Positions 2,320 through 57,548 of a stretch of DNA of 64,000 nucleotides are shown here, in pieces. Made by a program: the position numbers and the translations under genes. The notes beneath the pieces are model-generated. The model saw nothing but the letters and a program-made list of their open reading frames with translations, was not told the DNA's origin and did no database searches. Source of the stretch: Nanobdellota archaeon (GTDB lineage: Archaea; Nanobdellota; Nanobdellia; Parvarchaeales; Parvarchaeaceae); the NCBI GenBank assembly GCA_021846665.1, contig JAJZWM010000001.1, forward strand, positions 13,598 through 77,597, read 5' to 3'. Position 1 is the first letter of the stretch, and each line of letters starts with the position of its first letter.

Positions 2320-2322
2320 AAA

Positions 2323-5300: not shown

Positions 5301-5748
5301 GATTAAGCACAAGATTAGACTGTATAGTTATATTAGATGAATTTACAATTTCAAATGAATTTTCACTCAGCAGCGTTTCAAGGCCGTATTCTATTAAATT
5401 GTTATTTGGAAGACAGATTTGGCCTGCCAAATTTCTCCAATAATAAACTTTGGGGATAGGCACAAACGGTAATGATTGAGAAGTATTTATATAGCCACAG
5501 TCCAGAGTACTCGGTTGCAATGTCAAGCCATCAAAAAGCTCTGCTTTCTGAAAATTATAATTCGCTTCTTGCATAAGATAATCTTTTAAAGCGAGTGTTT
5601 GATAGATACTATTTTGAGCGGTTATCTCTATTTTTGAGCTAAGTCCAACATTTCCTATATAACCAAAGGCATTAAGTGTTATATATATTGTAGCAGCGAC
5701 CATCCCAAGAACCACAATCATGTTTGCCTGTCCTTTAGTATTTAGCAT
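2323..5748 (-). CDS. Giant (1141 aa) type IV pilin-like surface protein with class III signal peptide
   Basis: N-terminus MLNTKGQ/ANMIVVLGMVAATIYI: basic residue, then G-Q, then a hydrophobic stretch, as in archaeal prepilin signal peptides. Remainder Asn-rich with dense N-glycosylation sequons. Tightly packed in an operon (stop/start spacing of a few nt). Confidence 0.7.
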   Translation of the reverse strand: MLNTKGQANMIVVLGMVAATIYITLNAFGYIGNVGLSSKIEITAQNSIYQTLALKDYLMQEANYNFQKAELFDGLTLQPSTLDCGYINTSQSLPFVPIPKVYYWRNLAGQICLPNNNLIEYGLETLLSENSFEIVNSSNITIQSNLVLNLSNHNNTIFFSNLSAPFLSNKYQFQYNTSSATFSVCKWIFSSCVYVSHNVPLGVNFNLSNMEFTSMPLQDVLSGVISQATAVSAFFKGSGLSPSSQYSLLTFPNGNVAIIYTNTISGITSFYLTPMPNENLYTFNSVISYDKANNIPSKIQLFNDSKSGFIFDGTNYTFSVTSNTSGIFTIKPTNYVMFGIQPQFVYYKYILNSIQNSGTQNLLFPNDQNLYVSYSLFPLYSPQVCVNYNEGQYNLQNCLTLSDSITGDNYLSQLMQLGISFVNQSFPIGNQKIEGFAQYEIDNYISNAINAVNLKTVSVNGKPKYDWYSALILQLGSPQGTSYLLNKLNRVKEPYYGTYIYNCEQNSSDLTYCRNLLSSTLSQDIIALLQQQMPQELTFLSGVNFNINVLNLSINASEVSSCANASNYTVKSNYSYSVKSLPISGNFSEEILGIPISLDFGYQNDLSLTPTEACGIQKSPYSTGYPGFSEALITNNLTYINCAPIISQLFLNHTCITSLQTSNYTMEKYLNSTSSAPRGEYCTKMSNGQYFCPYYKVSSFSYKNWITSSNTCPDYFVINNKNFTTSQSSNYRLVSVYGGGADLAKFSFYNRTFVLYNGSLNLPINFSFNVGFNSTGPYAGISAFFSNGEDLSNNVISASFNSVQNPDGLYNYSIRADSATLLGGSNDHISPNTQNELSFNRYCIDNNGCNLTAYLDSNLQSNFYSNSTQITSAINLLGISTTSKSSSDLINYAFVSNYIPFYKPIEKELAYAPSSELNPSLNSSFGLKTNNNTYFNEIILNQSSFSNSFQLEINLNSNFNFGYLIPGYLKIFGVYSNNNVSQLYWWNQTALIDGGLLWINLTKNVPNELYIVYGQGASYNGKFSDNGSSVFPFFYALNTNSQPFTFFYPNNEQHNFNAHYSSLGLNLSNTEPIPPYIYNSSLNLYSEEFACININPFKLTLLNGTYSAYPPSFNINELYNDFSTLYPNLTIIGKKTYTNWP

Positions 5749-6333
5749 TTAATTTATCACCCCATAAATAGTATAAGGCTTCGAAGGATCTGCAGGGTTA
5801 TAAACCTGCATACTACACTTTGAACTACCTGTAACACCTGCAGGTATTTGATTTAAGAAGACCTGCATCCCGAGTGCTTTTAATGTAGCAGATTCCTGTC
5901 CTGTCAAAACCTTAAAATTACTTAGAGAAAACCCAGAAAAATAACCTATAAAATCGCTATAAAGAGAAGAAGAATTATAAAGAGAGGTTTGAATATAATT
6001 GTAATTTGAATCGCATGCCCCACTGCAATTTGTTGAAAGATACTGCTCTTTATTTGAATTTGCAAGAGCGTACTGACTTGAGGCATGTAATGCCAACTGA
6101 GACAAAGCAAACGCATTATGAACATAGTATGTACTGTACATTGTATCCAAAGCAAAATTACATGAAAATGAGACTGGCTGTTGACTTACTGCCGTTAACA
6201 GATTTGCAGTAGCACTGTGCAATAAAGCAGATGCTATTACTGCTAACACTACTGCAGCTAATGGTGCTAAAACTAGGTCCAGCATAGTAAGCTGGCCTTT
6301 TTTGCTCACTCTAACTGTAAGGTGGAATTCCAT
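5749..6333 (-). CDS. Small pilin-like protein (class III signal peptide); probable true start at the internal Met (MEFHLTVRVSKKGQ/LTMLDLV...)
   Basis: SKKGQ/LTMLDLVLAPLAAVVLAVIASALL matches the archaeal prepilin pattern [KR]-G-Q followed by a hydrophobic helix with an acidic residue near +5. Mature part ~170 aa with paired Cys. The ORF-track version (to 6390) extends upstream through an overlap with the preceding gene. The ATG at 6333 overlaps the upstream gene by only ~22 nt. Confidence 0.6.
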   Translation of the reverse strand: MEFHLTVRVSKKGQLTMLDLVLAPLAAVVLAVIASALLHSATANLLTAVSQQPVSFSCNFALDTMYSTYYVHNAFALSQLALHASSQYALANSNKEQYLSTNCSGACDSNYNYIQTSLYNSSSLYSDFIGYFSGFSLSNFKVLTGQESATLKALGMQVFLNQIPAGVTGSSKCSMQVYNPADPSKPYTIYGVIN

Positions 6334-7117
6334 AAGTAACCTGAACCTGTAATACGCCGCTGTTTTGAAAAGTCGGCTGTCCTTGTGCATTAGTAAATTG
6401 TATTTCTACGGGAAAACTTTCGGTATATGTATTTTCAGCGTAGAATATAGACGCTAAAGCATACTGTGGAGCTATTTCTGTAGTAGAATGTTGGCCTACT
6501 GCAAGGATTATATTAAACTGAATAGCTCCTCCCGTAGCAATCATAATTGCCAAACTAGAAGCTAAGCTTGCACCCATCGCAGCGTATTCTGCATTTTTTG
6601 CATATTTTTCTATTAAAGCTTCTGTCTGCTGAAAGCTTTCTCCAAAGTTAAATTGATTATAATTAGAAAGATACAAAGAACCAGTTGGACCAAGCTCGTT
6701 TGGATTTTGAGTATCAAACAAAGTTAATGAAACGCCCGTTGCAGCCTCAAGGTCTGACTGTAAGGCAGGTATATCTGTCGCTCCTCCAAAATAAATGTAT
6801 TGCATGCAAGAAAGAAAATAATTTTCAATGAATTTATTTATATTTACTACTCCAGGTTCGGTGTATGAAGATGAATATAATGGTCCGCCTGGAGCATCAA
6901 GACTTGAATTATAATAAGATATCGTATTTTTATAAGCAAAGCAATTTGGAGAAGTTATTAACCTTGTACCTATACCTGCCGCAACAGATTCCGAGTTTGC
7001 AAAAACACTTGTGCTATTTATCTGAGAAACGCTAAAAGATAATACCACTAATAAGAGAGCAAATGCAACTATTAGTATACCTGCATTCAAAAAAGCCATC
7101 ATCTCAACTAATGCCAT
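6311..7117 (-). CDS. Membrane-anchored protein of the pilin-like operon (N-terminal and C-terminal hydrophobic segments)
   Basis: 268 aa. N-terminus MALVEMMAFLNAGILIVAFALLLVVLSF is hydrophobic. A second hydrophobic stretch (ASLASSLAIMIATGGAIQFNIILAVG) lies near the C-terminus. Located between two pilin-like genes. Confidence 0.5.
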   Translation of the reverse strand: MALVEMMAFLNAGILIVAFALLLVVLSFSVSQINSTSVFANSESVAAGIGTRLITSPNCFAYKNTISYYNSSLDAPGGPLYSSSYTEPGVVNINKFIENYFLSCMQYIYFGGATDIPALQSDLEAATGVSLTLFDTQNPNELGPTGSLYLSNYNQFNFGESFQQTEALIEKYAKNAEYAAMGASLASSLAIMIATGGAIQFNIILAVGQHSTTEIAPQYALASIFYAENTYTESFPVEIQFTNAQGQPTFQNSGVLQVQVTYGIPPYS

Positions 7118-7123
7118 TTTTGC

Positions 7124-9568
7124 TCAACTCCTTGAAAAGTAAGTTCCTCCGGATGAATTTGGATTGTTCGGATAAACCCCGAAAACTAAACTATTATAAA
7201 CATTTCTTATATTATAATCTGTTGTATTAGCTTGTTGTGTTTTTGTAAATTCTAATGTTACATTTGAATAATCTGTTTCGTAGTATGAAAGATTCGTATC
7301 ATATGCAGATATAGCTATCATGGGAGAAATTAAGAAATTATCTAAAGATGTCGATGTACCAACTTGAAGTTTGGGGATACTTTTTCCAATAAAAGATGCA
7401 ATTAAGGAAGCCACTGGAAAATCTACACCGAAATCAACTTTCAGTTTTGGTTGACCGCCACCTATGAAATTACCTGCAGATAGAAAGCTGTTTTGCCCTA
7501 GAAGGTTAGTTGCAGTTAACTGATTTGGAAAATCCATTACAGGAACAGAAAAACCAAATAATGAACCATTGTTTATATAGAAATCCGAGTTATCTCCCAT
7601 ATTTTCCAATTCTGATAATTCATTTTGGGTTAAGTTTATATTAACTTTTCCATCGCTTAAATTTGTAATATTAACACATGATATTGGTGCACCATATTCA
7701 GTAACATTAAATGAGGGATTATTGAAATTGTTTGTATCTATTATTGGAGAGCCGAAAGAATCAATAAGCATCCTGTATATACAAAGATTTACATCGTTTT
7801 TCTGATTAGAGATAGCTAATGATTCTCCTGGTGGCAATAAAATTGTTATGTTTTTACTGCTTGCTTTTGAATTAAAAAGATTGTTGAGTTCTGTTTGAAG
7901 TGTATGTGGAAATAAGGCATTATTTTTTGAGCAAAGGGTATTGTAAAGCCCTTGAGATATAGAAAATGAGATAGAACCGTTACCACTTGGCTGTATAAGA
8001 GTCCTTAAATTCTGCCCTGAGTCTGCTGCAGTCTGTGCCAGTTCACACATATCATTCATATCTGTTATCAAAGGAGTAGTAACTTGTGTTGGTCTACCGC
8101 TTGACTGGCCGTTAAGGTATACCTCCCCGCCATATCCTACAAAATATGTCCCCAAAGGAAGAACGCTATTCACTTTTGTATATAAATTTATAAGCGTGGT
8201 AGCTGCACCTAGCTCAGATGATATCGAAGAAAATGCAGATCCAACTCCATTTGAGGTATAAGTCTTTAAATTTAAAGGCTGGGATGGAAGACTTAAGCAA
8301 CTAGCGGTTCTAGCATAAACTAGAAATGCATTCTGTGCAAGGAAAAATGGGATAGAAAGTAATGGATCTTTTCCACTTGATGACAACGCGACTGAACCTA
8401 TTAATGAACTTGAAGAACTTAAAGAACCTGGGGCTGAAACACCAGAAATTGGAGTTCCATAAAGATTATTTGAAGAAGCTGTAACTGCTGCATTAGAAAG
8501 TTCTGATAAGACATTCTGCTTTACAGTAACCTGCTTTGAAGTAAAGAGAATTAAAGTATCCTTTCCAATACCTGAAGGCAAAGAATTTAATGTCTGCTCG
8601 CTTGATAACAACTGAGAGTATTGCTGTAATACATAATCTGCTGCTGCGTACTTAAACGGTAATGGTGCCTGTGTAAGATATGCTGAAGCTATCTGTTGAC
8701 TTATTGATACAGATGGCCCTGTCAAAGCCCCGATTTGATGTCCATTTACATAAATTCCTTTAGTAACAAAGGTATTTAGGTTTCTACTATTAGTACCAAA
8801 CCAAGCCTCTATTATAGGAATAGATACTAAAGCTACAGAAAGAGATGCTACAGCGGTTGGTATAAGTATTTTCATACTTGGCAAAGCATCTCTTATATTT
8901 GAAAGACTACTAGAAAGAAGAGAATCCTCTGGAAGGTCTTGAAAAACCATTTCGTTTGCTTTACTACCTACAGCTATCAACCCATCAGATAATGCACTTT
9001 TTATCTTATATGATAAAATACCAAATTTTGTAAGTCCGGAGCTTTTTAAGTCGTCTGAAAGTTCTCCACGTAAGGCCGCGTCTGATAATTGAGCCTGTTC
9101 CTGCAAGATCGAATCTGCTTCCGTTGTCGCCTCATCTTTTGTGATCTGCGCAGCTTCATCGGTAGCTTCTTTTGCGGCATCTTCAGACCCGCCAACCCCC
9201 CCAAAACCGTATCCTATCATGAAACAAAGAGCAACACTAAAAACATTTTTACCCGAATCCAGAGTAGGGCCATTAGTGTATGATACATTATATACTTTAG
9301 ACCCGCCTGCACAGGTATAAGCGGATATTGATGGATCCCAAGTACACAATGAACTGTTTCCAGCTAGAGTAATAGACATTGAGGAAGGGGCACTATACAA
9401 AGAATTTATTGAAAAACCTATATTATTAGCGAATAACTGCAAAGATCTTGCGCCATTTTGAAAGAAAAGCCCCTGCAAATTAGCAAAATAAACTCCTACT
9501 AAAAGAAAGGCAGCAGATAAGATAATAACTCCTATACCTATAACTATCTGCGCCTTCTTAGTCAACAT
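7124..9568 (-). CDS. Giant (814 aa) type IV pilin-like surface protein with class III signal peptide; first gene of operon
   Basis: N-terminus MLTKKAQ/IVIGIGVIILSAAFLLVGVYFA (K-K-A-Q then hydrophobic helix). Contains an acidic low-complexity linker (DEAAQITKDEATTEADSILQEQAQLSDAALRGELSDD) and an internal hydrophobic segment (MKILIPTAVASLSVALVSIPII). Ser/Asn-rich. Confidence 0.7.
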   Translation of the reverse strand: MLTKKAQIVIGIGVIILSAAFLLVGVYFANLQGLFFQNGARSLQLFANNIGFSINSLYSAPSSMSITLAGNSSLCTWDPSISAYTCAGGSKVYNVSYTNGPTLDSGKNVFSVALCFMIGYGFGGVGGSEDAAKEATDEAAQITKDEATTEADSILQEQAQLSDAALRGELSDDLKSSGLTKFGILSYKIKSALSDGLIAVGSKANEMVFQDLPEDSLLSSSLSNIRDALPSMKILIPTAVASLSVALVSIPIIEAWFGTNSRNLNTFVTKGIYVNGHQIGALTGPSVSISQQIASAYLTQAPLPFKYAAADYVLQQYSQLLSSEQTLNSLPSGIGKDTLILFTSKQVTVKQNVLSELSNAAVTASSNNLYGTPISGVSAPGSLSSSSSLIGSVALSSSGKDPLLSIPFFLAQNAFLVYARTASCLSLPSQPLNLKTYTSNGVGSAFSSISSELGAATTLINLYTKVNSVLPLGTYFVGYGGEVYLNGQSSGRPTQVTTPLITDMNDMCELAQTAADSGQNLRTLIQPSGNGSISFSISQGLYNTLCSKNNALFPHTLQTELNNLFNSKASSKNITILLPPGESLAISNQKNDVNLCIYRMLIDSFGSPIIDTNNFNNPSFNVTEYGAPISCVNITNLSDGKVNINLTQNELSELENMGDNSDFYINNGSLFGFSVPVMDFPNQLTATNLLGQNSFLSAGNFIGGGQPKLKVDFGVDFPVASLIASFIGKSIPKLQVGTSTSLDNFLISPMIAISAYDTNLSYYETDYSNVTLEFTKTQQANTTDYNIRNVYNSLVFGVYPNNPNSSGGTYFSRS

Positions 9569-38100: not shown

Positions 38101-41100
38101 TTAATTTACCTGTCCATTCAATGGGCCGATACTTTGAACGGGCATGATTCCATTAGGAGGATATGCTCTTGCTATAAGCCACCTAACATAGTTATAATCG
38201 TAACCCCCCCCTGTTCCGGCTGCAACCATTAAAGTAGGATAATTAAAAGCGGAAGGTATAGAGCCACTCATCGAAATTGGGATGTTTATATCAGAGAAAT
38301 TAGAAATAGAAGAGGATTTATTAATTACCCCTGCTTCTACAGTTGTACTACTACTTACTATTAATTTTTCAGTATAAGTTTGTGGAGTTATTGAAGGTAA
38401 GTTATTAACTGTAGAGATAATTTTATTATTCACGTTGTCCAATATTGCCGGTAAATATTTACCTGAACAATTCATCCCAACAGGTTCTACCATTAACATA
38501 ACTGAATCAGCAGATGCAACATTTCCACCACCGCATGTAACAACCGGTGCTCCGGTAACTGATGAAGTATCACCAAATAAGGAAAGAATCTCTCCATCGG
38601 TTGGACTGTCTCCGCCATAGAAATTCCAAGAGTATTCAACAATTACCGGCTCTTCTGGTAATTGATTTGGAGGTAGTATATGAGTCCCCTCACTTGGTGT
38701 ATCATTTGTCATCTCTATACCATTAGGAGTAGCTACAGGAGTAAAGCTACCACCTGTTACATAAGGTGTCCAACCATCAAAACCAGAAGTATTAAGGAAA
38801 TCTCCATAGGATAAAAATACATTTTGTCCATCATCATATTCCCCATATATTGATGATAATTGAGGAGATTCACCATCATTAGTTTTATTAAACAGACTTA
38901 TATTTGGTAACGCAAAACCCATGAATGCAACATAAGATTCTCTAGGTTGTAGATTACCTAACTTCAGCCAATAATTTGTTGAAGTACTAGCAGACGAAAC
39001 GCCATTAAATGTAATATTGTTTATTGATAAAGTATTATGACCATTCTGCTGATTCCCATTTCCAGATAGAAGATACCATGCAATTAATCCAGAGCTATTT
39101 AAAGGTGATCCTGCAACGCCTTCATCATAAAGAAGAGCTACCTTTGAAGGTGAAAATACCTGATTATAAAACTGAACATTTGATATATACCCCTTGAAAT
39201 AGAAATTACTGTTATTTGTATTTGCCCAATTATTAGTATACCCTTCACCGATAGTCCAGTAAGTTGGAGAACAAGTTTGTGGTGTACCAGAATAAGTTGC
39301 TATTTCTATTCCATTTAAGTACAAAATCTGTTGTGAGGATGTTTGTACAATTGTGACAGAATTCCACTTTCCATTAGCTACAAAATGATTCGTATTAAAC
39401 GGCTGAGAACCTACCCAATCACCACCTGCCAAATCTCCGTTTTTATTTACATATATAATTGGGCTATAACAGCCTCCAGAAGAAACTTGCTTTAAATCAC
39501 CATTCCATAGAACAACACCATCACTGGTTGTCTTAAACCAAGCACTTATAGTAAATGTACCTGCTGTACCAAAAGGGTAATTCTCTGGTAGATTTGCATA
39601 GCTATTTGCGCCATTGAAATAAGCCAGGTCCCCTGAACTTAACCATGAAGGAATAACACTTCCACTTGGTGAGAAAAATTCAACGTTACTAAGGGTGTTA
39701 TTTTCAAAGATATTATAATCAAAAGAATTTATTGATAAGTTATCCTGGAATACATTAGGAGTTGCAGATGATTGAAGATTTGTTATAAATACCGGTACAA
39801 ATTCCTTCACATTTTTAGGTATATTAGCTACTGCCTCCCAGTAGGTTTGATTTGCCAGATTTGATTGATTAGAAAAAACAGTTATGTTATACAAACCTGC
39901 AGACAAAGGCTTTTGATAAGATAGACTTGCAGAACCTAAAGGGACTGCTACAGAACCGTTTATCATTAAACCTATATGACTAGCATGTATACCAAAAGCC
40001 GTTATATTCGTTATATCTCCAGAAGCTATACCATTATTTCCGTCTTTAACTCCATTTACAAAAACAGTAATCTGCGGTTCTATAGGACCAAAAGTTACAG
40101 AAGGCATAACTCCATTTGGAGGAGCGGAGGGAGAGTAATAATCTATTGCATTATTAGACCACATTGCCGTATAAGCGCCACCGCCATCTTCATAATAATC
40201 TAATTCTATTCTCTGTGTTCCAATTGAAGAGATAGTACCTAAATAAGTTGTAAAGCCTTCGGTATGCCATTGACTTACAAGATTATTTGGATTTGATGTT
40301 CCGCCTAACCAATAAGCTCCATTTCCTCCTGCAGGAGATGTTGAATAACCTAATGCTATACCATCGTCAGAACCTACGTAGAATGTTGTAGATGAATTAA
40401 CCTCAGCCCAGCCTATTGCCTTTATTATCCATGAATTTCCTGTATTTGATACGGGGGGATTTGGATAAGCTGCCCCGCCACTGTATCCTTCCTGATAATT
40501 CATTATTACATTACTTTCAGTTGTTCCATCTACATCTTGTGAACTGCCAATAGGGGAGGTATAAAATGGTTTAGTTGATGAAGACATTGGTGCACATGAA
40601 TTTATTGTAACGCCGTTGTTTAAGGCAGCTGCATACACATTATTCTGGTAACTTCCACTATTACAAGCCCCACTTGGATCGAAGTAAATTTGATACTCTA
40701 AGCCTTTATTCATAACGTTGCCTATATCATCATATTCACCATATGTTGAAGAAAGCTGCGGTGCTTCACCATCATTAACATTGTTAAATAAATTTGTGGA
40801 CTTGGATGCAAAACCCATATAAACTGTTATAGAAGACCTAACAGGTATACCACTGATTTTAAGCCAATAAACTGAACTTGTAGCTGTATTAGAATTTCCA
40901 GATTCTAGCCATGAATTTATAATTGTTCCATTGGGATAAAAGAATTCTACATTCTGTAGGTTAGACGCTTCATACTGCTGATAATTCGCAGAATTAACAA
41001 CTACTTCCTGCTGAAAAGGAGAAGAAGTTGAAATTGATTGATTATTTTTTATAGTCAAAGGAACAAAATTTAAAATACCTTTAGGAATCAGCAGAAGTTG

Positions 41101-41799
41101 TTGCGGAAGAAAACATGATGGGCTTATTATATTAAGAGAGCTAACATATATTTCAGCAACTGAATTTGGAGGGAATTGACCGCCATTACTAGGAGTTATA
41201 CTACCAGAGTAATAACCAGATAAAGTGCTTTCATTCTGCTCTGCCACCATTTTGTTATCATTATATATTATGATAGTAAAATTCACGTCACCAACTAAAT
41301 TACCGTTAGTATCAAGAAAAGAAACGTTATAAAGAATACTTGAAGGATTATAAATATAGGAAGTTGAAATGTAGGATATTGGTAAATCCATAGATATTTG
41401 TGCTTCTGGCCTACCGTTCTCTTTTACAAGTGTTACTCTACCAACGTAAGTTCCAGAACTTACTGGAAGTTCCCCCGTTGTATACAAAGATAATGATTGA
41501 GAGGCTTCTTCTCCCCCAAATGACAAAGATACAGATGTATTACAAATTGAAGAAACCAAATTTAAACCTGGAGAAGAAAAACTGAATTGCTGCGAGGAAC
41601 CAACAGCGCTTTCAGATAATGAATTTACTGCATTTGCTATGCTTTTAGCCGCCAATTGAAGATCTTGTGAAGTACCTGCTGAATTGTAACCTATCTGGTA
41701 GTATATAGCATATGATATAGCTGCACCAAGTATAAATATAGCTATACCCATTACTAACAGATATTCTAAGGAAGACTGGCTTTTTGATCCAATTTGCAT
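38101..41799 (-). CDS. Giant (1232 aa) class III signal-peptide surface protein. Internally duplicated. Two DUF2341-like modules, the second interrupted by a concanavalin A/LamG-like domain
   Basis: N-terminus MQIGSKSQ/SSLEYLLVMGIAIFILGAAISYAIYY (archaeal pilin-like Q-x-x-L-E-Y-L-L motif). Module 1 at ~aa 245-364 (PLTIKNNQSISTSSPFQQ...NVEFFYPNGTIINSWLESG...VYWLKISGIP...VYMGF...DGEAPQLSSTYGEYDD). Module 2 at ~aa 668-995 with an inserted FTISAWFKTTSDGVVLWNG LamG-like segment. Two occurrences of the PPNG-[VI]-MP-x-x-x-x-GP motif (aa ~560 and ~1215). Confidence 0.7.
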   Translation of the reverse strand: MQIGSKSQSSLEYLLVMGIAIFILGAAISYAIYYQIGYNSAGTSQDLQLAAKSIANAVNSLSESAVGSSQQFSFSSPGLNLVSSICNTSVSLSFGGEEASQSLSLYTTGELPVSSGTYVGRVTLVKENGRPEAQISMDLPISYISTSYIYNPSSILYNVSFLDTNGNLVGDVNFTIIIYNDNKMVAEQNESTLSGYYSGSITPSNGGQFPPNSVAEIYVSSLNIISPSCFLPQQLLLIPKGILNFVPLTIKNNQSISTSSPFQQEVVVNSANYQQYEASNLQNVEFFYPNGTIINSWLESGNSNTATSSVYWLKISGIPVRSSITVYMGFASKSTNLFNNVNDGEAPQLSSTYGEYDDIGNVMNKGLEYQIYFDPSGACNSGSYQNNVYAAALNNGVTINSCAPMSSSTKPFYTSPIGSSQDVDGTTESNVIMNYQEGYSGGAAYPNPPVSNTGNSWIIKAIGWAEVNSSTTFYVGSDDGIALGYSTSPAGGNGAYWLGGTSNPNNLVSQWHTEGFTTYLGTISSIGTQRIELDYYEDGGGAYTAMWSNNAIDYYSPSAPPNGVMPSVTFGPIEPQITVFVNGVKDGNNGIASGDITNITAFGIHASHIGLMINGSVAVPLGSASLSYQKPLSAGLYNITVFSNQSNLANQTYWEAVANIPKNVKEFVPVFITNLQSSATPNVFQDNLSINSFDYNIFENNTLSNVEFFSPSGSVIPSWLSSGDLAYFNGANSYANLPENYPFGTAGTFTISAWFKTTSDGVVLWNGDLKQVSSGGCYSPIIYVNKNGDLAGGDWVGSQPFNTNHFVANGKWNSVTIVQTSSQQILYLNGIEIATYSGTPQTCSPTYWTIGEGYTNNWANTNNSNFYFKGYISNVQFYNQVFSPSKVALLYDEGVAGSPLNSSGLIAWYLLSGNGNQQNGHNTLSINNITFNGVSSASTSTNYWLKLGNLQPRESYVAFMGFALPNISLFNKTNDGESPQLSSIYGEYDDGQNVFLSYGDFLNTSGFDGWTPYVTGGSFTPVATPNGIEMTNDTPSEGTHILPPNQLPEEPVIVEYSWNFYGGDSPTDGEILSLFGDTSSVTGAPVVTCGGGNVASADSVMLMVEPVGMNCSGKYLPAILDNVNNKIISTVNNLPSITPQTYTEKLIVSSSTTVEAGVINKSSSISNFSDINIPISMSGSIPSAFNYPTLMVAAGTGGGYDYNYVRWLIARAYPPNGIMPVQSIGPLNGQVN

Positions 41800-41803
41800 A
41801 AGA

Positions 41804-42409
41804 TTAATTATCCTTTATATTAAAGAACTTATCAACAATCTTATTTATTCTTTGACTTACCTCTTCGACTGTGCCTTTAGCATTCACTTTTTTGAGATGA
41901 AACTCCTTTGCTATTGACAGATATGCTTGTCTAACTTTTGATATCTTTTCAACGTTGCCAAAAAGCTGTATACCGTCTACTTGTTTTTCGGCTCTTAATA
42001 AGGAAGTTTTAGGATCTAAATCCAAATATATACCTAAATCTGGTTTCCTAAAACTTATGTTTACAGAACGAAGCCATTTATAATTTATATTAGACGCAAA
42101 ACCATATGCTAAAGTTGAGAAGAAATATCTGTCACATACTACAATAAAACCATCCTGCATTGCAGGCTCTATTTCCGTATCTAAATGATGCGCCCTATCG
42201 GCACAGAAAATAAGCTGCAGAGCTTTATCTGAAAGATTAAGTTCTTTGTTTAATGCCGCCTTTGATATTCCTCCTAAAATACCATTTGTTGGTTCCTTTG
42301 TCAAAAGAACCTTGAATCCTCTGGATCTTAAATACTCTGCCAGAAGAACTGACTGTGTGCCTTTTCCAGCATTATCTATTCCTTCTATTACTATAAATTT
42401 TCCTTTCAT
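41804..42409 (-). CDS. tmk: Thymidylate kinase
   Basis: 201 aa. P-loop IEGIDNAGKGTQS. DRYFFSTLAYG (DRY...S..AY). Lid region. PDLGIYLD. Confidence 0.75.
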   Translation of the reverse strand: MKGKFIVIEGIDNAGKGTQSVLLAEYLRSRGFKVLLTKEPTNGILGGISKAALNKELNLSDKALQLIFCADRAHHLDTEIEPAMQDGFIVVCDRYFFSTLAYGFASNINYKWLRSVNISFRKPDLGIYLDLDPKTSLLRAEKQVDGIQLFGNVEKISKVRQAYLSIAKEFHLKKVNAKGTVEEVSQRINKIVDKFFNIKDN

Positions 42410-42411
42410 AG

Positions 42412-43020
42412 TTAATCAATAGCTTTTTTTATTAAATAAGATATCTCTTCTATGCTTTTGCTCCCGTCTATCTCTTCCCAGGATTTAGCATAAAAACTCT
42501 CATTTTTTAATTTATCATAAAAAGTTGAAACATTGAAAAGAAAATTTTTATTGCTTTCAAATTTGTCGACATCCATCTTTCCCTTCTGTTTTTCCTTTCT
42601 CTGCATTGAGATATCAACAGGTACATTTACGTAAAACACTTTATCTACTACTGGCATATCTAAAAGCTTTACAATTTCTTTTCCATTTTCATAAGAAAAG
42701 CCACCTGCTGATTGATAAGCTATAGTAGAAAAGAAGAATCTATCTATTATAATATAACTTCCATTATTTACATCTTCTATTATATTACTTCTATCCTTTA
42801 CCATATCAATTATGTAAAGCATAAAAAGCTCATCTACTTTTAGGTTTATCTTTTTATATAGAAATGATTTTATCCTTTCCCCATAAATAGAAGAATAATC
42901 GGGATAAGAATATATTGAAACCTTCTTTCCTTCTTTTTCCAGTGTTTCTTTTAAAATTTTGGCTTGTGTAGCTTTCCCAGCACCATCTATTCCTTCTATT
43001 ACTATTATTTTTCCAGCCAT
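42412..43020 (-). CDS. Thymidylate kinase paralog (second Tmk-family nucleoside monophosphate kinase)
   Basis: 202 aa. P-loop IEGIDGAGKATQA. DRFFFSTIAYQ. Tandem with tmk and directly upstream of PolD DP1 (1-3 nt gaps). Confidence 0.65.
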   Translation of the reverse strand: MAGKIIVIEGIDGAGKATQAKILKETLEKEGKKVSIYSYPDYSSIYGERIKSFLYKKINLKVDELFMLYIIDMVKDRSNIIEDVNNGSYIIIDRFFFSTIAYQSAGGFSYENGKEIVKLLDMPVVDKVFYVNVPVDISMQRKEKQKGKMDVDKFESNKNFLFNVSTFYDKLKNESFYAKSWEEIDGSKSIEEISYLIKKAID

Positions 43021-51180: not shown

Positions 51181-52452
51181 TTAAGTTTTAGCTACGAGAT
51201 CTATGCATCTTCCAGCTGCTATTGTTAAACCCATGTCCCTAATTGCAAAACCGGCAAGTTGAGGTATAACATCAGCTTTCTCGATTGAAAGAGGTTTAAG
51301 AGGCTCCAAAACAACTATTGCAGCATCACCTTGCTTAATTGTTGCAGGATTCTCCTCTGCTGTTTGTCCTGTCTTAGGATCAAGTCTCTTAAGTATCTTC
51401 TTGAACTTTACTGGAACCTGTGCAGTATGTGCATGAAGTACCGGACTATATCCTGCAGATATAGCTGTTGGATGGTTAAGAACAATTATCTGGGCAGTAA
51501 ACTCAGTTGCAACTGTTGGTGGAGCTGACACTGATCCAACGACATCTCCTCTTTTTACCTGTTCTTTTTCAATGCCTCTGACGTTGAAACCTATATTGTC
51601 ACCAGGTATAGCTTGATCAAGATTCTGGTAGTGCATTTGTATCGACTTTACATCAGCTGTAACATGTGAAGGCTCGAATATTATCTTGTCTCCTGGTTTC
51701 ATAATACCACTTACAACTTTACCTACTGGAACTGTTCCTACCCCCTGTATTGAATAAACATCTTCTATTGGTATTCTTAATGGCAATTGTGTAGGTCTGT
51801 CTGGTAAAGGCAAATTATTCAAAGCTTCTAACAATGTTGGGCCTGTATACCAAGGCATCTTATCGCTTTTAACCTTAAGATTCTCACCATTCTTTGAGGA
51901 AATAGGTATATAGTTAAGACTTTCAGCATTAGGATACGATGCTTTAACGGTTTTTATTACTGATTCTTTTACTTCTTTGTACTTAGCCTCATCATAGTTC
52001 AAAAGATCCATCTTATTCATTGCAATTATAAGGTTCTTTATACCAAAGACTCTTGCCAAATAAACGTGCTCTCTAGTCTGCTGCATTACTCCTTCTTTAG
52101 CATCAACAACCAATACAGCTGCATCTGCTTCAGAAGCTCCTGTAATCATATTTTTAATAAAGTCAACGTGCCCTGGAGCATCGATTATGGTAAATTCATA
52201 TTTATCTGTAACAAATTTTTCGTGACTAAGGTCTATTGTTACTCCTTTCTTTCTTTCTTCACCAGAAGTATCTAAGAAATAAGCGAACTCGAAGTCTACT
52301 TTTCCTAAAGTTTCAATGTCCTTCTGAATTCTTGCTTTATCTTGCTCACTAAAGCTTCCTGTCTCATAAAGCAACCTTCCTACTGTTGTAGACTTACCTG
52401 AGTCTACGTGCCCTATGAAAATCAAATTCATGTGTGGTTTTGTTTCTGCCAT
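51181..52452 (-). CDS. tuf: Translation elongation factor 1-alpha
   Basis: 423 aa. G1 GHVDSGKST. G3 DAPGH. G4 NKMD. ERKKGVTIDLSHEKFVTDKYEFTIIDAPGHVDFIKNMITGASEADAAVLVV is near-canonical EF-1alpha. Confidence 0.9.
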   Translation of the reverse strand: MAETKPHMNLIFIGHVDSGKSTTVGRLLYETGSFSEQDKARIQKDIETLGKVDFEFAYFLDTSGEERKKGVTIDLSHEKFVTDKYEFTIIDAPGHVDFIKNMITGASEADAAVLVVDAKEGVMQQTREHVYLARVFGIKNLIIAMNKMDLLNYDEAKYKEVKESVIKTVKASYPNAESLNYIPISSKNGENLKVKSDKMPWYTGPTLLEALNNLPLPDRPTQLPLRIPIEDVYSIQGVGTVPVGKVVSGIMKPGDKIIFEPSHVTADVKSIQMHYQNLDQAIPGDNIGFNVRGIEKEQVKRGDVVGSVSAPPTVATEFTAQIIVLNHPTAISAGYSPVLHAHTAQVPVKFKKILKRLDPKTGQTAEENPATIKQGDAAIVVLEPLKPLSIEKADVIPQLAGFAIRDMGLTIAAGRCIDLVAKT

Positions 52453-52459
52453 GTTTTAT

Positions 52460-52465
52460 CCTCCT
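52460..52465 (-). promoter_or_regulatory. Shine-Dalgarno-like GGAGG ribosome binding site for tuf
   Basis: Minus strand AAAAGGAGGATAAAAC-ATG. GGAGG sits 7 nt upstream of the start codon. Most other genes here show no SD and look leaderless. Confidence 0.5.
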
Positions 52466-52757
52466 TTTATTAAATTTATCAAATTTTAATATACTATAAA
52501 GAAGTATTTATTATTTAAATCTTTTGGTATTACAAAATATCTTTTATATTTAAATTATAAAGATTAAAATAATAAAATTTTTCAACTAAATAAAAATTTA
52601 TATGTTAATTACCTAAATTTGTTTTACTTATAACAAATTAATTATAAACATTTAAAAGTAAATAAATCTCCTTTAATTATTAATTAGATTTCAAATATTA
52701 GAAACAACAGAAAAATATTATTATTTTATTCACAATAAAAATTTTATTAAATCTAAA

Positions 52758-55700
52758 TTAACTCTCTAAAGCAACAACTGCATCATTTGGTGAAGAACAT
52801 TGTCCTCCGCCGCTACCCGTTCCTCCTGAAACTGAATATATGCCGACAGGCAGGTTTATATTAGTTGCAGCTGAGGATATACACCAATTAGTAGTGCTTT
52901 CAGATGAGATACTTGTACCAGTTAAGGTATTTGTTAAATCATAAGTTATATAATCAGGTGAACCTGCTGCCCAATAAATATTCGCATTGCCTCCCGACCA
53001 AGTAACTGCAAAATCATAGTTCTGGTTATTATTACCAGTAATATCTGCATACCCTACTGGAGTTATTCCCCCAAAACTTGTAGATGGCATTGAACCACCT
53101 GGAGGATAATCCCTGGCGAATATCCAATTATAGAAAATTTTTTCTGCATACTTACCAGCTATTCCAGTATATGAAAGTGAAGCGAAGTAAAGTGGGCCAG
53201 ACAATGTAAACCCTGTATTTAAGGAAGTAGAATATCCTGTCCCACTATTAACGTATTCTGGTAAATTACCAACATAAGAAGCATAAGATGAACCACCAGT
53301 ATATGTTAGTTCTGCATAATCCCAATTTGAATTTGCTACACCATTTTCATTATTTCCTTCAGAATATGTACCTCCCCTAGCTACGCCGGTACAGTATGTA
53401 TGTATACCACATGAATACCTATATGTATACACATAATCATCTTTGGCATAATCTTGGTATTCTAGATAACATGTTGAAGAACTACAATCATTAACATTAA
53501 CTCCTCCAGACTGAGTACCTATACCATAATAAGAATTATAGTTTCCATTACTGTCATTAGTTAAACCTAATACACCATTATCTGAACCTAATGCGTTTTC
53601 TATATTAAAGTTAGTTTCTAATATCAATGGAGAATTTGAAAAACTAGAATCACTATAAGCCGTCATAACAGAACCTCCTGCAGGTGAACCTATAGAACCA
53701 TCTAAATAAATAGCGGTTATAGATTCACCTGAATTATAAGAAACAGAAGGATGACTAAAACTAATAGAAACGGAATCGAAATTAGTACTAAAACCAGATG
53801 TACTTGATTCACCATTCAAATAAAAGTTAAAAACATTTCCGCCATTATCATATTCTCCGTATGTACTGGATAATTGAGGAGCTTCTCCTACCTGACCAGG
53901 ATACTGTGAAAAGAAATTTGTTGATGGAAGACCAAAGCCCATATATATAACTGCAGTGGAGTATGAGCCTATAGAGAAGGGAAGACTAAGCCAGTAAGTT
54001 GTGCTGCTGTAAGTACTATTACCGAGTTCTAACCATGAAGATATTATCTGACCCGAAGATGTGAAGAAAAGAACATTCTGCATGTTATTACTTTCAAATT
54101 CACCGTAATTATTTGCATTAAATTCTATCCTCTGCTGAAAACCATTAGAAGTTGACTGAGATTGAGAATTATCTATAGTTATAGGAACATAAAAGATTAC
54201 TCCTGATGGAACGGAAGTTGGAGACTGCTGAGAATAATCTATATTGCTATTTGTACCTGCAAGAACTGAAGATGGAGAGTTTGACTGCGTGTACTTTTGA
54301 CCTGATGATGTTAATAAATCGCCAGGTATATATACACTTTCAGTTCCTGGAATTGAACTTGCAGACAAAGATGTTGAGCTTCCAGTAGGTTCATTTGAAC
54401 CAATTATCACTGCCCAGTTTGTCCCACTGCTTAGACCGCTCTCTGTAAATGTGGTAACACAGTCCCAGTAATTTACACTAAATATATTTATACTCCCTTC
54501 TAAATATCCTACGCTTGTAGCATTATAATTACACCCAGTATTTTCTACATTCGCCTGAGTCACAGGCTCATAAGAAACTGTAGTTATTCCTGTAGTAGTT
54601 ATTGGTATTGAATTTGTCACTGAAGAATATGAAGACTGTGCACCAGTATATGTTACTCTCCAATCATAAGAATTGTAGGAAGAAGGCAATCCTGAACTAA
54701 AGATAGTTACACATGTCCATGGTGTAAACTGTACTGTATCGCCCATCTGCACCGATGATAAAGCAGAACTGCAATCAAGATTATCACTTACTGCACTAGC
54801 AGAATAGCTTTCAACAGTAACTACATTATTTCTTTTAAATACAGCATTGCTGCCTACACTTAAAAATGAGTCTGTAGATCCATTATAAGATGCATTCCAT
54901 TTACCGCCTGATGGCAGAGCTGTTTCAGTGAATGTTGTAGTACAGCTCCATGGATTGAAGTTATTTCCTGATGAGCCCTGCTGAGCTGTTGTTGAACTTG
55001 TGCAATTCAATTCATTCAAAGGATAGCCTGATGATGAAGCTCTATAATAGGACACTACAGGTATATTTGTCTGTAATATTGATATTGCACCGCCTGTAGA
55101 AACCGTAGGACTAGAAGAACCATCATAATTTGTTATATACCACTGCTTTCCTGAAGGTAAGCCTGTTTCTGTAAAGGTTGTAGTACAGTTCCATGCGCTG
55201 AATGTGTAGCTGCTGCCTAATCTTACTGAAGGGTTATTATATGAAACACATGCAAGATTGTCACTTTTAGCAGTTGCAGTGTAATAAACCTGTGCATTAT
55301 TGATATTATCTGTCTTTATGTTTATTGCCGAGCCTGTGGAATTGCTTTTAGTTGTTCCATTGAATGTTACTTGCCAATTCTGATTGGAAGGCAATCCTGT
55401 TTCTGTAAAGGTTGTAGTACAGTTTGAAGTGAATGCTATTATATCCCTTACCCCCGTTGAATGATAGCCTGATGAAGGTACTGGCTTACTGATACAGCCC
55501 TGATATGTAACCGAGGGAACTGAAAAATAGTAATTACCAAAGGGTAAATTGAAGGAAACGTTGTCTTTTATGCTTGAAACTATTGTTGAATTTGTTGATG
55601 TATTGTAATTTACAGTAAATGTACTGCCATACGGCAATCCTTTCTCTATGAAATAAGTTAACTGGTTGTTTATTGGTATTGCGCCACTTACTAACGTAGA

Positions 55701-56165
55701 TGATACTGTACCGTTTGATACTTCATATATGCTTGATTTATAGGGTGTAAATGATATCTGTACCTTTGAAATATAACTTGTTGTAGGTATACTCACAGGT
55801 ACTCTGCACAGAGTAGATTGGCCGGTTGATATTATGCTATCCAGGCAGTAGAAGGTCGTATATGTATTTCCATTGACATTTACTGTTATACCTGTAACAT
55901 TTATAAACTGATTGTAATTGTTTGTTATCTTGACTACCATCATTGTTGAATTTGCTTCTGCCGCCTGCATTGTTATTCCTTTAAAACCGCTTATTATTGT
56001 AGGTGCTGCCGGTACTTTGAAAACTCCTAATGAGAAAAGTATTACCAATACTAACACTATTATGATTAGAACCCAGCCCCAGCTCATTAAATAATCCAGT
56101 GCTGCCTGAGCACTTCTTCCCTTACTAATAGTTTTTCTAGTTTTTTTATTTATAGTGGAAGGCAT
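52758..56165 (-). CDS. Giant (1135 aa) class III signal-peptide surface protein with 5-6 tandem Cys-bounded Ig-like repeats, one DUF2341-like module and a Cys-rich C-terminal region
   Basis: N-terminus ...SKGRSAQ/AALDYLMSWGWVLIIIVLVLVILFSLGVF matches the archaeal pilin N-terminal consensus (A-Q-x-A-[LM]-[ED]-Y-L-M-[ST]-[WY]-G-W..). Repeats contain W-[ND]-C-T-T-T-F-T-E-[TS]-G-L-P-S-G at aa ~170-620. Module PITIDNSQSQSTSNGFQQ...NVLFFTSSGQIISSWLELG...YWLSLP...IYMGF...GEAPQLSSTYGEYDNGGNVF at aa ~662-782. C-terminal FARDYPPGGSMP motif is shared with the 1232-aa protein. Confidence 0.7.
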   Translation of the reverse strand: MPSTINKKTRKTISKGRSAQAALDYLMSWGWVLIIIVLVLVILFSLGVFKVPAAPTIISGFKGITMQAAEANSTMMVVKITNNYNQFINVTGITVNVNGNTYTTFYCLDSIISTGQSTLCRVPVSIPTTSYISKVQISFTPYKSSIYEVSNGTVSSTLVSGAIPINNQLTYFIEKGLPYGSTFTVNYNTSTNSTIVSSIKDNVSFNLPFGNYYFSVPSVTYQGCISKPVPSSGYHSTGVRDIIAFTSNCTTTFTETGLPSNQNWQVTFNGTTKSNSTGSAINIKTDNINNAQVYYTATAKSDNLACVSYNNPSVRLGSSYTFSAWNCTTTFTETGLPSGKQWYITNYDGSSSPTVSTGGAISILQTNIPVVSYYRASSSGYPLNELNCTSSTTAQQGSSGNNFNPWSCTTTFTETALPSGGKWNASYNGSTDSFLSVGSNAVFKRNNVVTVESYSASAVSDNLDCSSALSSVQMGDTVQFTPWTCVTIFSSGLPSSYNSYDWRVTYTGAQSSYSSVTNSIPITTTGITTVSYEPVTQANVENTGCNYNATSVGYLEGSINIFSVNYWDCVTTFTESGLSSGTNWAVIIGSNEPTGSSTSLSASSIPGTESVYIPGDLLTSSGQKYTQSNSPSSVLAGTNSNIDYSQQSPTSVPSGVIFYVPITIDNSQSQSTSNGFQQRIEFNANNYGEFESNNMQNVLFFTSSGQIISSWLELGNSTYSSTTYWLSLPFSIGSYSTAVIYMGFGLPSTNFFSQYPGQVGEAPQLSSTYGEYDNGGNVFNFYLNGESSTSGFSTNFDSVSISFSHPSVSYNSGESITAIYLDGSIGSPAGGSVMTAYSDSSFSNSPLILETNFNIENALGSDNGVLGLTNDSNGNYNSYYGIGTQSGGVNVNDCSSSTCYLEYQDYAKDDYVYTYRYSCGIHTYCTGVARGGTYSEGNNENGVANSNWDYAELTYTGGSSYASYVGNLPEYVNSGTGYSTSLNTGFTLSGPLYFASLSYTGIAGKYAEKIFYNWIFARDYPPGGSMPSTSFGGITPVGYADITGNNNQNYDFAVTWSGGNANIYWAAGSPDYITYDLTNTLTGTSISSESTTNWCISSAATNINLPVGIYSVSGGTGSGGGQCSSPNDAVVALES
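54300..55660. repeat. Intragenic tandem repeats (~230-bp period) encoding the TFTETGLPSG Ig-like domains
   Basis: DNA-level recurrence of cctgtttctgtaaaggttgtagtacag (55167-55193, 55396-55422) and variant ctgtttcagtgaatgttgtagtacag (~54925-54950). Confidence 0.7.
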
Positions 56166-56261: not shown

Positions 56262-57548
56262 ATGGAGTATTATATAAAAGACATAAAAAAAGCGGAATTT
56301 GAAGGCAAAGAAATTGAATTAAACGGTTTTGTAAATAGCATAAGAAAAGGCAAAAACAATTCTTTTCTAATATTAAGAGACCCCAGCGGAACTATACAAT
56401 GTGTAAGTCATTCAACAGATAAAAGTTTCCAAGATGTAAACAAAATAACAAGAGAATCAGCTATAAAAATAAAAGGAAAATTAAGAAAAGATGAGAGAGC
56501 TGAAGGTGGTTATGAGATTGCAATAGAGGATTTAAATATATACTCAATTGCTGAGCCTTATCCACTAAAAAAAGGCCATAAAAAAGTTTTTCTTTTTGAT
56601 AACCGTCACTTATGGCTTAGAAGTCCAAAAATGACTGCTATAATGAAAATAAGATCAACAGTATTTTCTTCAATACATGAATTTTTCTCATCGAATGGAT
56701 TCTATGAAATTCAATCACCGTCTTTCGTAGGAGGAAGCGTTGAAGGAGGTTCTACTTTATTTGAAACGAATTATTTTGAAAAGAAAGCATACTTAACACA
56801 GAGCTGGCAACTATACGCCGAAGCAATGGTTGATGCATTATGGAAAATTTATACTGTTGCTCCTTCATTTAGAGCAGAAAAAAGCAGAACTTGGCGTCAC
56901 TTGACTGAGTTTTGGCATGCCGAAGCCGAAGTTGCGTTTAAAACAAACGAAGAAGTCATGGATATAGAAGAAAAACTCATTAAATATATAGTAAAAAACG
57001 TTCTAATAAATAACGCAGATGAATTAAAATTACTAAAAAGAGATACTACTGTTCTTGAAAATGTTGTTAACAAGCCTTTTCTTAGAATGAAATACGAAGA
57101 AGTAATAGACCTAGCAAATAAAAATGGCCTTAAACTTGAGTACGGTGCTGATTTAGGAGCAGATGAAGAAAGAGCAATAACATCTAAACTTGATATACCT
57201 ATTTTTTCAATGAATTACCCTATAGAATTAAAACCGTTCTATCACAAACCAGACCCAAAAGACAATAAACATGTTTTATGCAATGATCTTTTAGCGCCAG
57301 AGGGTTATGGAGAGGTTATAGGCGGCGGACAAAGAGTTGATGATAAGGAAACTCTTCTTAAAAGATTGAAGGATGAAGGACTAAATGAAGAAGACTATGA
57401 ATGGTATATTGACATTAGAAGATATGGCGCAATACCACATTCAGGATTTGGGCTTGGAGTAGACCGGCTAGTAATGTGGATTTGCAAACTTCCACACATA
57501 ATGTATGCTGTCCCATTCCCAAGAACACCTAGAAGATTAAATCCATAG
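56262..57548 (+). CDS. asnS: Class IIb aminoacyl-tRNA synthetase, most likely asparaginyl-tRNA synthetase (AsnRS/AspRS family)
   Basis: 428 aa. N-terminal OB fold. Motif 2 region TVAPSFRAEKSRTWRHLTEFWHAEAEVAF (RHL-x-EFW as in AsnRS rather than AspRS). Motif 3 GFGLGVDRLVMWI. C-terminal FPRTPRRL. Confidence 0.6.
   Translation: MEYYIKDIKKAEFEGKEIELNGFVNSIRKGKNNSFLILRDPSGTIQCVSHSTDKSFQDVNKITRESAIKIKGKLRKDERAEGGYEIAIEDLNIYSIAEPYPLKKGHKKVFLFDNRHLWLRSPKMTAIMKIRSTVFSSIHEFFSSNGFYEIQSPSFVGGSVEGGSTLFETNYFEKKAYLTQSWQLYAEAMVDALWKIYTVAPSFRAEKSRTWRHLTEFWHAEAEVAFKTNEEVMDIEEKLIKYIVKNVLINNADELKLLKRDTTVLENVVNKPFLRMKYEEVIDLANKNGLKLEYGADLGADEERAITSKLDIPIFSMNYPIELKPFYHKPDPKDNKHVLCNDLLAPEGYGEVIGGGQRVDDKETLLKRLKDEGLNEEDYEWYIDIRRYGAIPHSGFGLGVDRLVMWICKLPHIMYAVPFPRTPRRLNP

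Follow-up and report, generated by a model that had tools for sequence, protein, structure and literature searches.

The locus and its giant gene

We analysed a window of 64,000 nucleotides from a Nanobdellota archaeon (contig JAJZWM010000001.1), in which one complete gene encodes a putative pilin-like surface protein of 1135 amino acids (aa). The coordinates of this giant gene, of its parts and of the features around it are collected in Table 1. An identical protein (P0001) is present in independent assemblies, and the identical protein and its close relatives come from metagenome-assembled genomes (MAGs) of Candidatus Parvarchaeota, ARMAN-4 and ARMAN-5, which are DPANN archaea; the window is therefore assigned to this lineage. 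An earlier interpretation of the locus, made from the DNA letters alone (hereafter the sequence-only reading), is partly confirmed in its description and partly supported in its conclusions. It placed the gene correctly between tuf and asnS and beside an AT-rich spacer, but the spacer is not upstream of the gene: it lies between the stop codon of the giant gene and the start of tuf. The tuf ATG is preceded by a GGAGG sequence, and 96 bp separate the ATG of the giant gene from the divergent asnS.

Table 1 Features of the giant gene and its surroundings (positions in the window; pLDDT, predicted local distance difference test)
Feature	Position	Strand	Remarks
Complete gene of the 1135-aa protein	52758..56165	-	Uninterrupted open reading frame (ORF), 1135 codons + stop
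Basic leader peptide MPSTINKKTRKTISKGRSA, aa 1-19, predicted to be removed	56109..56165	-	Unconserved in relatives; pLDDT <50
Class III (prepilin-type) signal core and hydrophobic helix QAALDYLMSWGWVLIIIVLVLVILFSLGVFK, aa 20-50	56016..56108	-	Q20 = +1, D24 = +5
N-terminal beta-sandwich domain, aa 51-165, pilin/archaellin/FlaF-like	55671..56015	-	Conserved Cys107 and Cys120
Stalk of six tandem ~80-aa immunoglobulin (Ig)-like repeats, aa 166-639	54249..55670	-	W-x-C-T-T-T-F-T-E-x-G-L-P-S-G motif
Whole head, aa 652-1035	53061..54212	-	Concanavalin-A (ConA)-like lectin/glucanase jelly roll, predicted
DUF2341-related module, aa 652-785	53811..54212	-	N-terminal part of head
Replaceable cassette in head, aa ~786-1020 (~235 aa, ~700 bp)	53106..53810	-	Dimorphic between otherwise identical strains
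R-D-Y-P-P-G-G-S-M-P motif, aa 1018-1027	53085..53114	-	Hallmark end of DUF2341/ConA unit
Extra C-terminal tail domain, aa 1036-1135	52761..53060	-	Cys1095 and Cys1123
AT-rich intergenic spacer	52453..52757	.	305 bp, 87.9% AT; 3' of giant gene, 5' of tuf
EF-1alpha (tuf) neighbour	51181..52452	-	Annotation of flanking gene
Asparagine-tRNA ligase (asnS) neighbour	56262..57548	+	Annotation of flanking gene
1232-aa protein sharing the module	38101..41799	-	Class III signal (SKS/QSSLEYLLVMG), two DUF2341/ConA units

Ser, Thr, Gly and Asn together make up 46% of the 1135-aa protein, charged residues are scarce, and all of its 18 Cys form nine putative pairs of near neighbours. Neither the whole protein nor any of four pieces of it matched a Pfam or NCBIfam model, and nothing significant was returned by sequence searches of the PDB with the whole protein, a head profile or a repeat profile.

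A prepilin-type signal and a pilin-like domain

The N-terminal sequence given by the sequence-only reading, ...KGRSAQAALDYLMSWGWVLIIIVLVLVILFSLGVF, is correct, and its pilin-like character is borne out by an alignment of 39 relatives. The leaders of these proteins vary from 3 to 35 aa and show no conservation, which sets in exactly at Q20 with the pattern Q-[AST]-[AV]-[LV]-[DE]-[YFS]-L-x-[ST]-[WY]-G-W. Q20, L26 and W31 are invariant in the 39 sequences, position +5 is D or E across the family, and a hydrophobic run follows at aa 27-49. In the experimentally studied DUF361 pilins of M. maripaludis, the signal stops before a conserved +1 Gln and is followed by a conserved +5 Glu, a rule that applies to EppA-processed pilins (PMC3875500). 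Since conservation starts at Q20, and Q20 and D24 occupy the +1 and +5 positions as in the DUF361 pilins, cleavage is expected before Q20, one residue away from the site after the Gln that had been proposed. The protein thus carries the charged leader, the cleavage core and the ~20 hydrophobic residues of a class III signal.

In the AlphaFold prediction, aa 20-45 form a helix and aa 57-158 a beta-sandwich, the arrangement of an N-terminal alpha-helix followed by an archaeal pilin/archaellin-type sandwich. The corresponding fold matches are FlaF (the best), FlaG, a Methanospirillum archaellin and the P. arsenaticum pilin; we infer from the aligned lengths that they belong to the helix and the N-terminal domain. 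If they do, the pilin-like interpretation holds both for the sequence logic and for the fold.

A stalk of six Ig-like repeats with disulfides predicted at the junctions

The stalk consists of six units (aa 166-243, 244-321, 322-402, 403-479, 480-563 and 564-639), each of ~78-84 aa. Their pairwise identities are 20-44%, and the family hidden Markov model matches every one of them with E values from 1e-15 to 5e-28. At aa 249, 327, 408, 485 and 569, the sequence follows the pattern C-[TV]-T-[TI]-F; the first unit carries YFIEKGLPYG and lacks the Cys of this motif. The ~230-bp period that had been noticed in the DNA is seen as a spacing of 234-243 bp, but it is confined to a motif region of ~60 nt with 67-80% identity. 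Tandem Repeats Finder reported no array in the repeat region, because the repeats are too diverged in DNA.

Structure prediction, which had been suggested as a check on discrete folding, modelled the units as separate all-beta, beta-sandwich domains with pLDDT mostly above 90. Foldseek matched the array, with E values down to 2.8e-9, to tandem Ig-like stalks from bacterial adhesins and pilins (the B. anthracis TIE protein, PitA, T-antigens, the RII repeats of an ice-binding adhesin, UafA and the B repeats of SdrD), and aligned it also with macroglobulin and FN3 arrays. In the models, the protein therefore has the make-up of a fibrillar adhesin, a stalk of tandem beta-sandwiches with a putative adhesive domain at its distal end.

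The sequence-only reading had counted five to six Cys-bounded repeats and placed a disulfide staple across each. There are indeed six tandem units, but structurally they are not bounded by Cys, and the pattern of Cys co-occurrence favours pairing of the late Cys of unit n with the early Cys of unit n+1. We tabulated the two conserved Cys columns across 926 units. At the junctions, both Cys were present in 310 cases, both absent in 58, and only 8 cases were discordant (phi 0.92), whereas the two Cys inside one nominal unit were discordant in 99 cases (phi 0.45). In a set of 78 proteins non-redundant at 70% identity, the counts (both/neither/discordant) were 156/48/5 for junction pairs (phi 0.94) and 146/54/41 within units (phi 0.62), and 33 of the 35 first units bearing Cys had the late Cys alone. 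The two Cys of a pair are in most cases 18-31 residues apart, and most often 21. For the 1135-aa protein, the predicted disulfides are 224-249, 306-327, 388-408, 465-485 and 545-569. This junction pairing accounts for all Cys of the stalk, including the lack of an early Cys in unit 1 and of a late Cys in unit 6. Such a bond would seal the final hairpin of a unit, and W-x-C would then be structurally part of the preceding unit.

A probable lectin-type head closed by a conserved motif

The C-terminal module is related to DUF2341, as the sequence-only reading had suggested, and is predicted to have a ConA-like fold. Residues 652-780 align with aa 238-364 of the 1232-aa protein encoded elsewhere in the window (52% identity, E 9e-32) and match also a second copy of the module in that protein, which is split by a Laminin_G_3 insertion. 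The module is 40-53% identical to many proteins that carry PF10102 (DUF2341), but has no Pfam DUF2341 match of its own: at the gathering score, PF10102 did not match the 1135-aa protein, and it gave the 1232-aa protein 18.5 bits against a cut-off of 23.4. The assignment to DUF2341 depends on the homologues with PF10102.

In a search with aa 640-1135 as query, the region aa ~650-1035 proved colinear, at 28-34% identity, with many archaeal proteins of 400-530 aa. The terminal motif ARDYPPGGSMPS occupies aa 1017-1028, and five of its residues (R379, P382, P383, G385 and M387, numbered along the C-terminal query) are the same in all aligned sequences. Most relatives terminate in R-x-R-A-Y-P-P-N-G-V-M-P-S-V-S-F-G-S-V. 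Because these relatives end exactly at the motif, R-x-YPP-x-G-x-MP is the normal C-terminal end of a DUF2341/ConA unit. The motif was rightly said to be shared with the 1232-aa protein, which has ARAYPPNGIMP at its C-terminus.

The head model, built from 15 sequences, has a mean pLDDT of 59.8, with 70-89 over the DUF2341 part. It is a predicted jelly-roll beta-sandwich, and its fold matches include the galectin-like YesU, GH16 enzymes, CBM66 and phage receptor-binding domains. Four Cys (Cys894, Cys899, Cys919 and Cys925) are located inside the head. The Cys-rich tail described earlier did not hold up, as the last 100 aa contain only 2 Cys (1095 and 1123). This tail is found only in close orthologues and paralogues, and its model shows beta structure at low confidence (pLDDT 30-56).

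A dimorphic cassette in the head

The orthologue P0002 lies in a syntenic locus (L062) with the gene order PolD large subunit, CBS protein, 185-aa membrane protein, AsnRS, giant gene and EF-1alpha. Over ~6.4 kb, the DNA of the two loci is 99-100% identical in most 150-column alignment windows and 93-98% in a few. The two sequences part from ~53800 to 53190, where they are only 27-65% identical and differ by many indels; identity rises again to 85% at 53187-53038 and to 95-98% between 53037 and 52590. At the protein level, the two are 97-100% identical by region over aa 1-785, 45-69% over aa 786-1035 and 97% over aa 1036-1135. The closest cassette is that of the paralogue P0121 (75-80% aa and 78% DNA identity), which occupies a different type of locus (acetyltransferase-Usp-MFS) and whose flanks share only 64% and 30% identity with those of the query.

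In independent assemblies, the 1135-aa allele is present at full length four times and a 1173/1169-aa allele three times; the difference is not an assembly artefact, because both alleles recur. The divergence runs through protein-conserved stretches and is accompanied by indels, which points to acquisition of the cassette by recombination with a diverged family member rather than to local hypermutation. Mutagenesis by a diversity-generating retroelement was considered and rejected: it would leave only substitutions at template adenines and no indels, whereas the segment has 15-76 gap columns per 150 and a DNA identity of 27-65%. No silent donor cassette was found within the window, and no close head variants were found in JGI metagenomes, where a profile scan gave distant DUF2341 proteins only; population-level diversity of the cassette was judged from cluster members.

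Three further stretches (54249..54398, 53800..53948 and 56649..56798) are 93-97% identical to L062 against the background of 99-100%. Two of these lie around the end of the repeats and the beginning of the head, and all three may have been left by additional recombination events.

A family with a common handle and different heads

Many Parvarchaeota proteins align to residues 1 to ~420-640 of the 1135-aa protein at 52-74% identity (BLAST mapping) and then diverge. Beyond this common handle their C-terminal parts differ, with YVTN/PQQ-like beta-propellers in some and DUF2341 units in others. Two or three handle-bearing genes are present in each species-representative genome, and Parvarchaeota or 'Nanoarchaeota' MAGs are the only source of long matches. 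In ten loci (L003, L005, L013, L014, L017, L020, L022, L027, L029 and L030), contig ends of species-representative MAGs cut family members within or shortly behind the conserved N-terminal/repeat region. Such truncation suggests that the multi-copy handle breaks assemblies, and the copy numbers per genome are therefore probably underestimated.

The sequence-only reading had instead joined the 1135-aa protein with the 1232-aa protein in one paralogous family. The two share the type of signal, one module and one motif, but their overall architecture differs: the 1232-aa protein is devoid of FTE-GLP repeats, and its N-terminal domain is unrelated. Judged by the alignments, the true paralogous family is the set of Parvarchaeota proteins with common residues 1-~600 and different heads, and not the 1232-aa protein. 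In the latter, an internal PSAPPNGVMPS at ~556-566 closes the first unit, and a complete Laminin_G_3 domain (aa 729-888) stands in the second unit between the module halves aa 655-727 and 936-995. Directly upstream of its gene lie two tandem genes of ~200 aa (41804..42409 and 42412..43020, minus strand) with GIDxAGKxTQ P-loop N-termini, which, judged by their sequence, look like duplicated thymidylate-kinase-like genes.

The ~78-aa F-T-E-x-G-L-P repeat itself extends much further. A profile built from 63 diverse units found it in 7,855 cluster representatives among 1.84 billion proteins, and the highest count was 44 units in one protein of 3552 aa (set P0335-P0468). The repeat had no match in the Pfam library copy used or in the sequences of the PDB, and this large family is without a Pfam model in that copy and without a solved structure. 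All orthologues of the giant gene have six repeats and paralogues 4-9; the copy-number variation proposed as a check was thus not seen among orthologues. In Thermoplasmata proteins, a Cys-free form of the repeat is attached to beta-propellers, kumamolisin-type proteases and other domains.

Some repeat-only fragments bear the labels 'DUF7619' or 'thermopsin', which our local Pfam copy does not reproduce and which we reject: P0240, P0241, P0252, P0253 and the repeat units matched neither DUF7619 (PF24595) nor the thermopsin peptidase at E <= 10. DUF7619 is a CnaA-like isopeptide domain of ~130 aa, in contrast to the repeat units, which have ~78 aa and are nearly free of Lys.

Genomic context of the family

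Synteny with more distant orthologues is not conserved. The gene of one more distant relative, P0040 (locus L061, ENA contig k141_1465196, 8736..22745), precedes four small genes with pilin-like N-termini, one for a Peptidase_A24 (prepilin peptidase) and one for a giant paralogue; the Peptidase_A24 gene lies 6 kb from P0040. The second giant paralogue of this cluster opens with RRSQSALEFLITYGWMIILIV. MAGs of the Parvarchaeales have been reported to contain flaHIJ and pilin genes (PMC10134863).

At the other end of our window, <1..9568 on the minus strand contains a run of at least five consecutive genes (7124..9568, 6311..7117, 5749..6390, 2323..5748 and <1..2322). Their products are Pfam-less, rich in Ser, Thr, Asn and Gly, and contain Cys; at least three have class III-like N-termini, with a hydrophobic helix after a short basic leader (MLTKKA/QIVIGIG..., ..KKG/QLTMLDLV... 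and MLNTKG/QANMIVVLG...). This cluster may be a minor-pilin or pilus-associated operon.

A stalked adhesin as the favoured interpretation

Together, our results make it fairly probable that the 1135-aa protein is a lectin adhesin of the Parvarchaeota (ARMAN) cell surface, modular and type IV pilin-like, with a stalk clamped by disulfides. We then propose a model for its maturation and function. A prepilin peptidase (peptidase A24) would remove the leader in front of Q20 to give a mature protein starting with QAALDYLMSWGW..., whose N-terminal helix would anchor it in the membrane. Most likely, by analogy with bacterial PilB and PilC, a type IV pilus-like system would then take the protein up as a bulky minor or tip subunit; its tip location and a direct role in adhesion are suggested by the case of PilC (PMC9934059). 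The repeats would build a stalk that we estimate at 25-30 nm, with a disulfide clamp on the final hairpin of each unit, at the border to the following one, an arrangement that would suit an oxidising habitat of pH ~1. On this stalk, the lectin-type head is predicted to grip glycans of Thermoplasmatales partner cells or of the biofilm matrix. Paralogues would retain residues 1-~600 and swap heads, and recombination with diverged family members would replace the central part of the head and thereby alter specificity or antigenicity. Cryo-electron tomography of acid mine drainage biofilms has shown Velcro-like, string-like and pili-like contacts between ARMAN and Thermoplasmatales cells (PMC4110969).

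Several observations weigh against this model. No pilus ATPase, TadC/FlaJ platform or prepilin peptidase (A24) was found among the window ORFs scanned, the giant gene is set among housekeeping genes, and the context of the orthologue P0005/P0013 is likewise free of a pilus ATPase, platform and prepilin peptidase. Neither Pfam PF04021 (Class_IIIsignal/DUF361) nor the NCBIfam pilin models matched the whole protein or its N-terminal 63-168 aa at E <= 10, a result to be read with the shortness of the Class_IIIsignal profile, whose weak matches HMMER filters may discard. A usual class III signal has [KR]-G at -2/-1 and a leader of 5-13 aa. The signal described here departs from this with S-A and a 19-aa leader, and across the family Ala or Ser is found at -1 more often than Gly. 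FlaF, the best fold match, serves as a stator protein anchored in the membrane and does not form part of the filament. The predicted disulfides are derived from Cys co-occurrence, and the head model is of moderate confidence. N-x-S/T sequons number 16, fewer than the ~27 estimated from composition, and we therefore make no claim of sequon enrichment. All functional statements are derived from sequence and predicted structure.

In the main alternative, the same stalked lectin never enters a filament and stands in the cell envelope as a monomer or oligomer, its leader cleaved or not, with the helix as a membrane anchor only, as in FlaF/FlaG or the Sulfolobus bindosome proteins. In its favour, the gene stands by itself between housekeeping genes, the 64 kb show no assembly machinery, and a mature product of ~1116 residues is far too bulky for any place in a filament except the tip. 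On the other hand, the first ~30 mature residues, including the +1 Q and the +5 D/E, are the best conserved of the family, which exceeds the need of a plain anchor, and one relative adjoins small pilin-like genes and a prepilin peptidase. We thus regard the anchor-only protein as a genuine but rather doubtful possibility. An enzymatic head and a role in an envelope lattice are less likely still. As an enzyme, the head would be a cell-tethered, GH16- or PL7-like glycanase or lyase, and not a lectin, and would free sugars of the biofilm polymers or the glycocalyx of the host. Repeats of the same type are joined in Thermoplasmata to proteases and hydrolase-like domains, for example Pro-kumamolisin, and some repeat proteins bear the unreproduced 'thermopsin' label. 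However, no GH16-type E-x-D-x-x-E catalytic motif was found in the head, non-catalytic lectins, carbohydrate-binding modules and phage receptor-binding domains match it equally well, and the confidence of the model is too low for identifying a cleft, so that we find an enzyme improbable.

The composition of the protein, large, charge-poor and rich in Ser, Thr, Asn and Gly like the envelope proteins of acidophiles, would also fit a structural component of the ARMAN cell wall, of the envelope or S-layer type, instead of an adhesin, and ARMAN cells have a distinct wall (PMC4110969). Such a role is hard to reconcile with several paralogues per genome that carry different heads, and a dimorphic head cassette is unfit for a lattice-forming protein; in addition, the protein has a class III and not a Sec signal and lacks a C-terminal anchor. 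We consider this explanation very improbable. The stalked, pilin-like lectin adhesin therefore remains the interpretation that we favour.

It is also tempting to speculate, although we hold it to be unlikely as a whole, that the family is a host-recognition system of ARMAN/Parvarchaeota, in which an invariant pilin and stalk handle (aa 1-~600) carries interchangeable heads, the ligand-binding core of the lectin head is exchanged at this locus through recombination between paralogues, and the stalk repeat was captured from the host lineage and then hardened by junction disulfides. If this were true, strains of one species would differ in the Thermoplasmatales surface glycans that they grip, or in the viruses that grip them.

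The protein family described here is a concrete candidate for host recognition and attachment by DPANN nano-archaea, and we know of no adhesin identified for ARMAN-type cells. It offers a predicted processing site, a confidently modelled repeat, a lectin-type head and a dimorphic segment in which specificity may reside.

Comparison with known systems

Each ingredient of the protein is known in kind: class III signals, heads of the DUF2341/ConA type, stalks of Ig-like domains and pilins of modular build have all been found before. Their combination here, a pilin handle, a repeat stalk absent from Pfam and the PDB with putative junction disulfides, and a dimorphic lectin-type head, is not described in the literature searched, and no named match has an annotation other than hypothetical or a general domain name.

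Related to the head are small archaeal class III and DUF2341 proteins of ~400-530 aa, which start with QSALEYMMTYGWAIL..., frequently match Pfam DUF2341 and end with the nearly invariant ...RTRAYPPNGVMPSVSFGSVS. They share the signal type, the colinear head and the terminal motif, but have no stalk and end at the motif, whereas the 1135-aa protein adds six repeats and a 100-aa tail. These small proteins (P0142-P0228, L064-L143) are very widespread, occurring in Micrarchaeota, Parvarchaeota, Nitrososphaerales and Thermoproteota, and JGI metagenomes contain at least 521 confirmed relatives. For the stalk, the homologous ~78-aa repeat (V-T-F-T-E-S-G-L-P-S-G-T-x-W-S-V) is found in secreted multi-repeat proteins of Thermoplasmata, in which the two Cys are absent and the repeats sit on beta-propellers, sedolisin/kumamolisin-type proteases and other domains; among the matches listed, most have no BLAST alignment to the N-terminal pilin region.

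With the archaeal DUF361-type pilins and the large DUF2341 proteins of Methanococcus (Epd; Makarova, Koonin and Albers 2016, PMC4858521), the protein has in common the +1 Gln, the acidic +5 residue and the hydrophobic helix. The DUF2341 proteins of the Methanococcus type IV pilus loci, proposed to be PilY1-like tip adhesins (PMC4858521), resemble it further in bearing a DUF2341-related module on a large secreted protein. In contrast to them, the gene described here lies outside a pilus locus, and its product has no Pfam match of its own, a six-domain stalk between the pilin domain and the head, and Ala or Ser rather than Gly at -1; its lineage is DPANN and not that of a methanogen.

Among bacteria, parallels are offered by S. 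sanguinis PilC, a modular pilin at the pilus tip that carries a ConA-like lectin module, and by PilB, which has a vWA module (PMC9934059, PMC8179133). In both, a class III signal and pilin moiety bears a grafted adhesive module, the same domain order in one polypeptide as in the 1135-aa protein, and the PilC module belongs to the ConA-like lectin/glucanase superfamily, as the head here is predicted to, and binds glycans at the pilus tip (PMC9934059). Unlike PilB and PilC, with which no sequence similarity was detected (no PDB sequence match), the archaeal protein has a beta-sandwich pilin domain instead of an alpha-beta roll, and a stalk of ~475 aa separates the module from it.

The stalk brings the protein close to the fibrillar adhesins, such as B. 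anthracis TIE (6fwv), Streptococcus PitA and T-antigens, Marinomonas RII and staphylococcal SdrD B. In these, too, tandem beta-sandwiches of ~80-100 aa project a distal binding domain and each domain is covalently stabilised. The fibrillar adhesins use isopeptide, ester or thioester bonds or Ca2+ and are held by a C-terminal sortase or other sorting signal, whereas the archaeal protein has predicted disulfides and an N-terminal pilin-helix anchor. We suggest that its disulfide clamps may be an alternative, in an archaeon of an acid habitat, to the isopeptide bonds that stabilise bacterial adhesin stalks.

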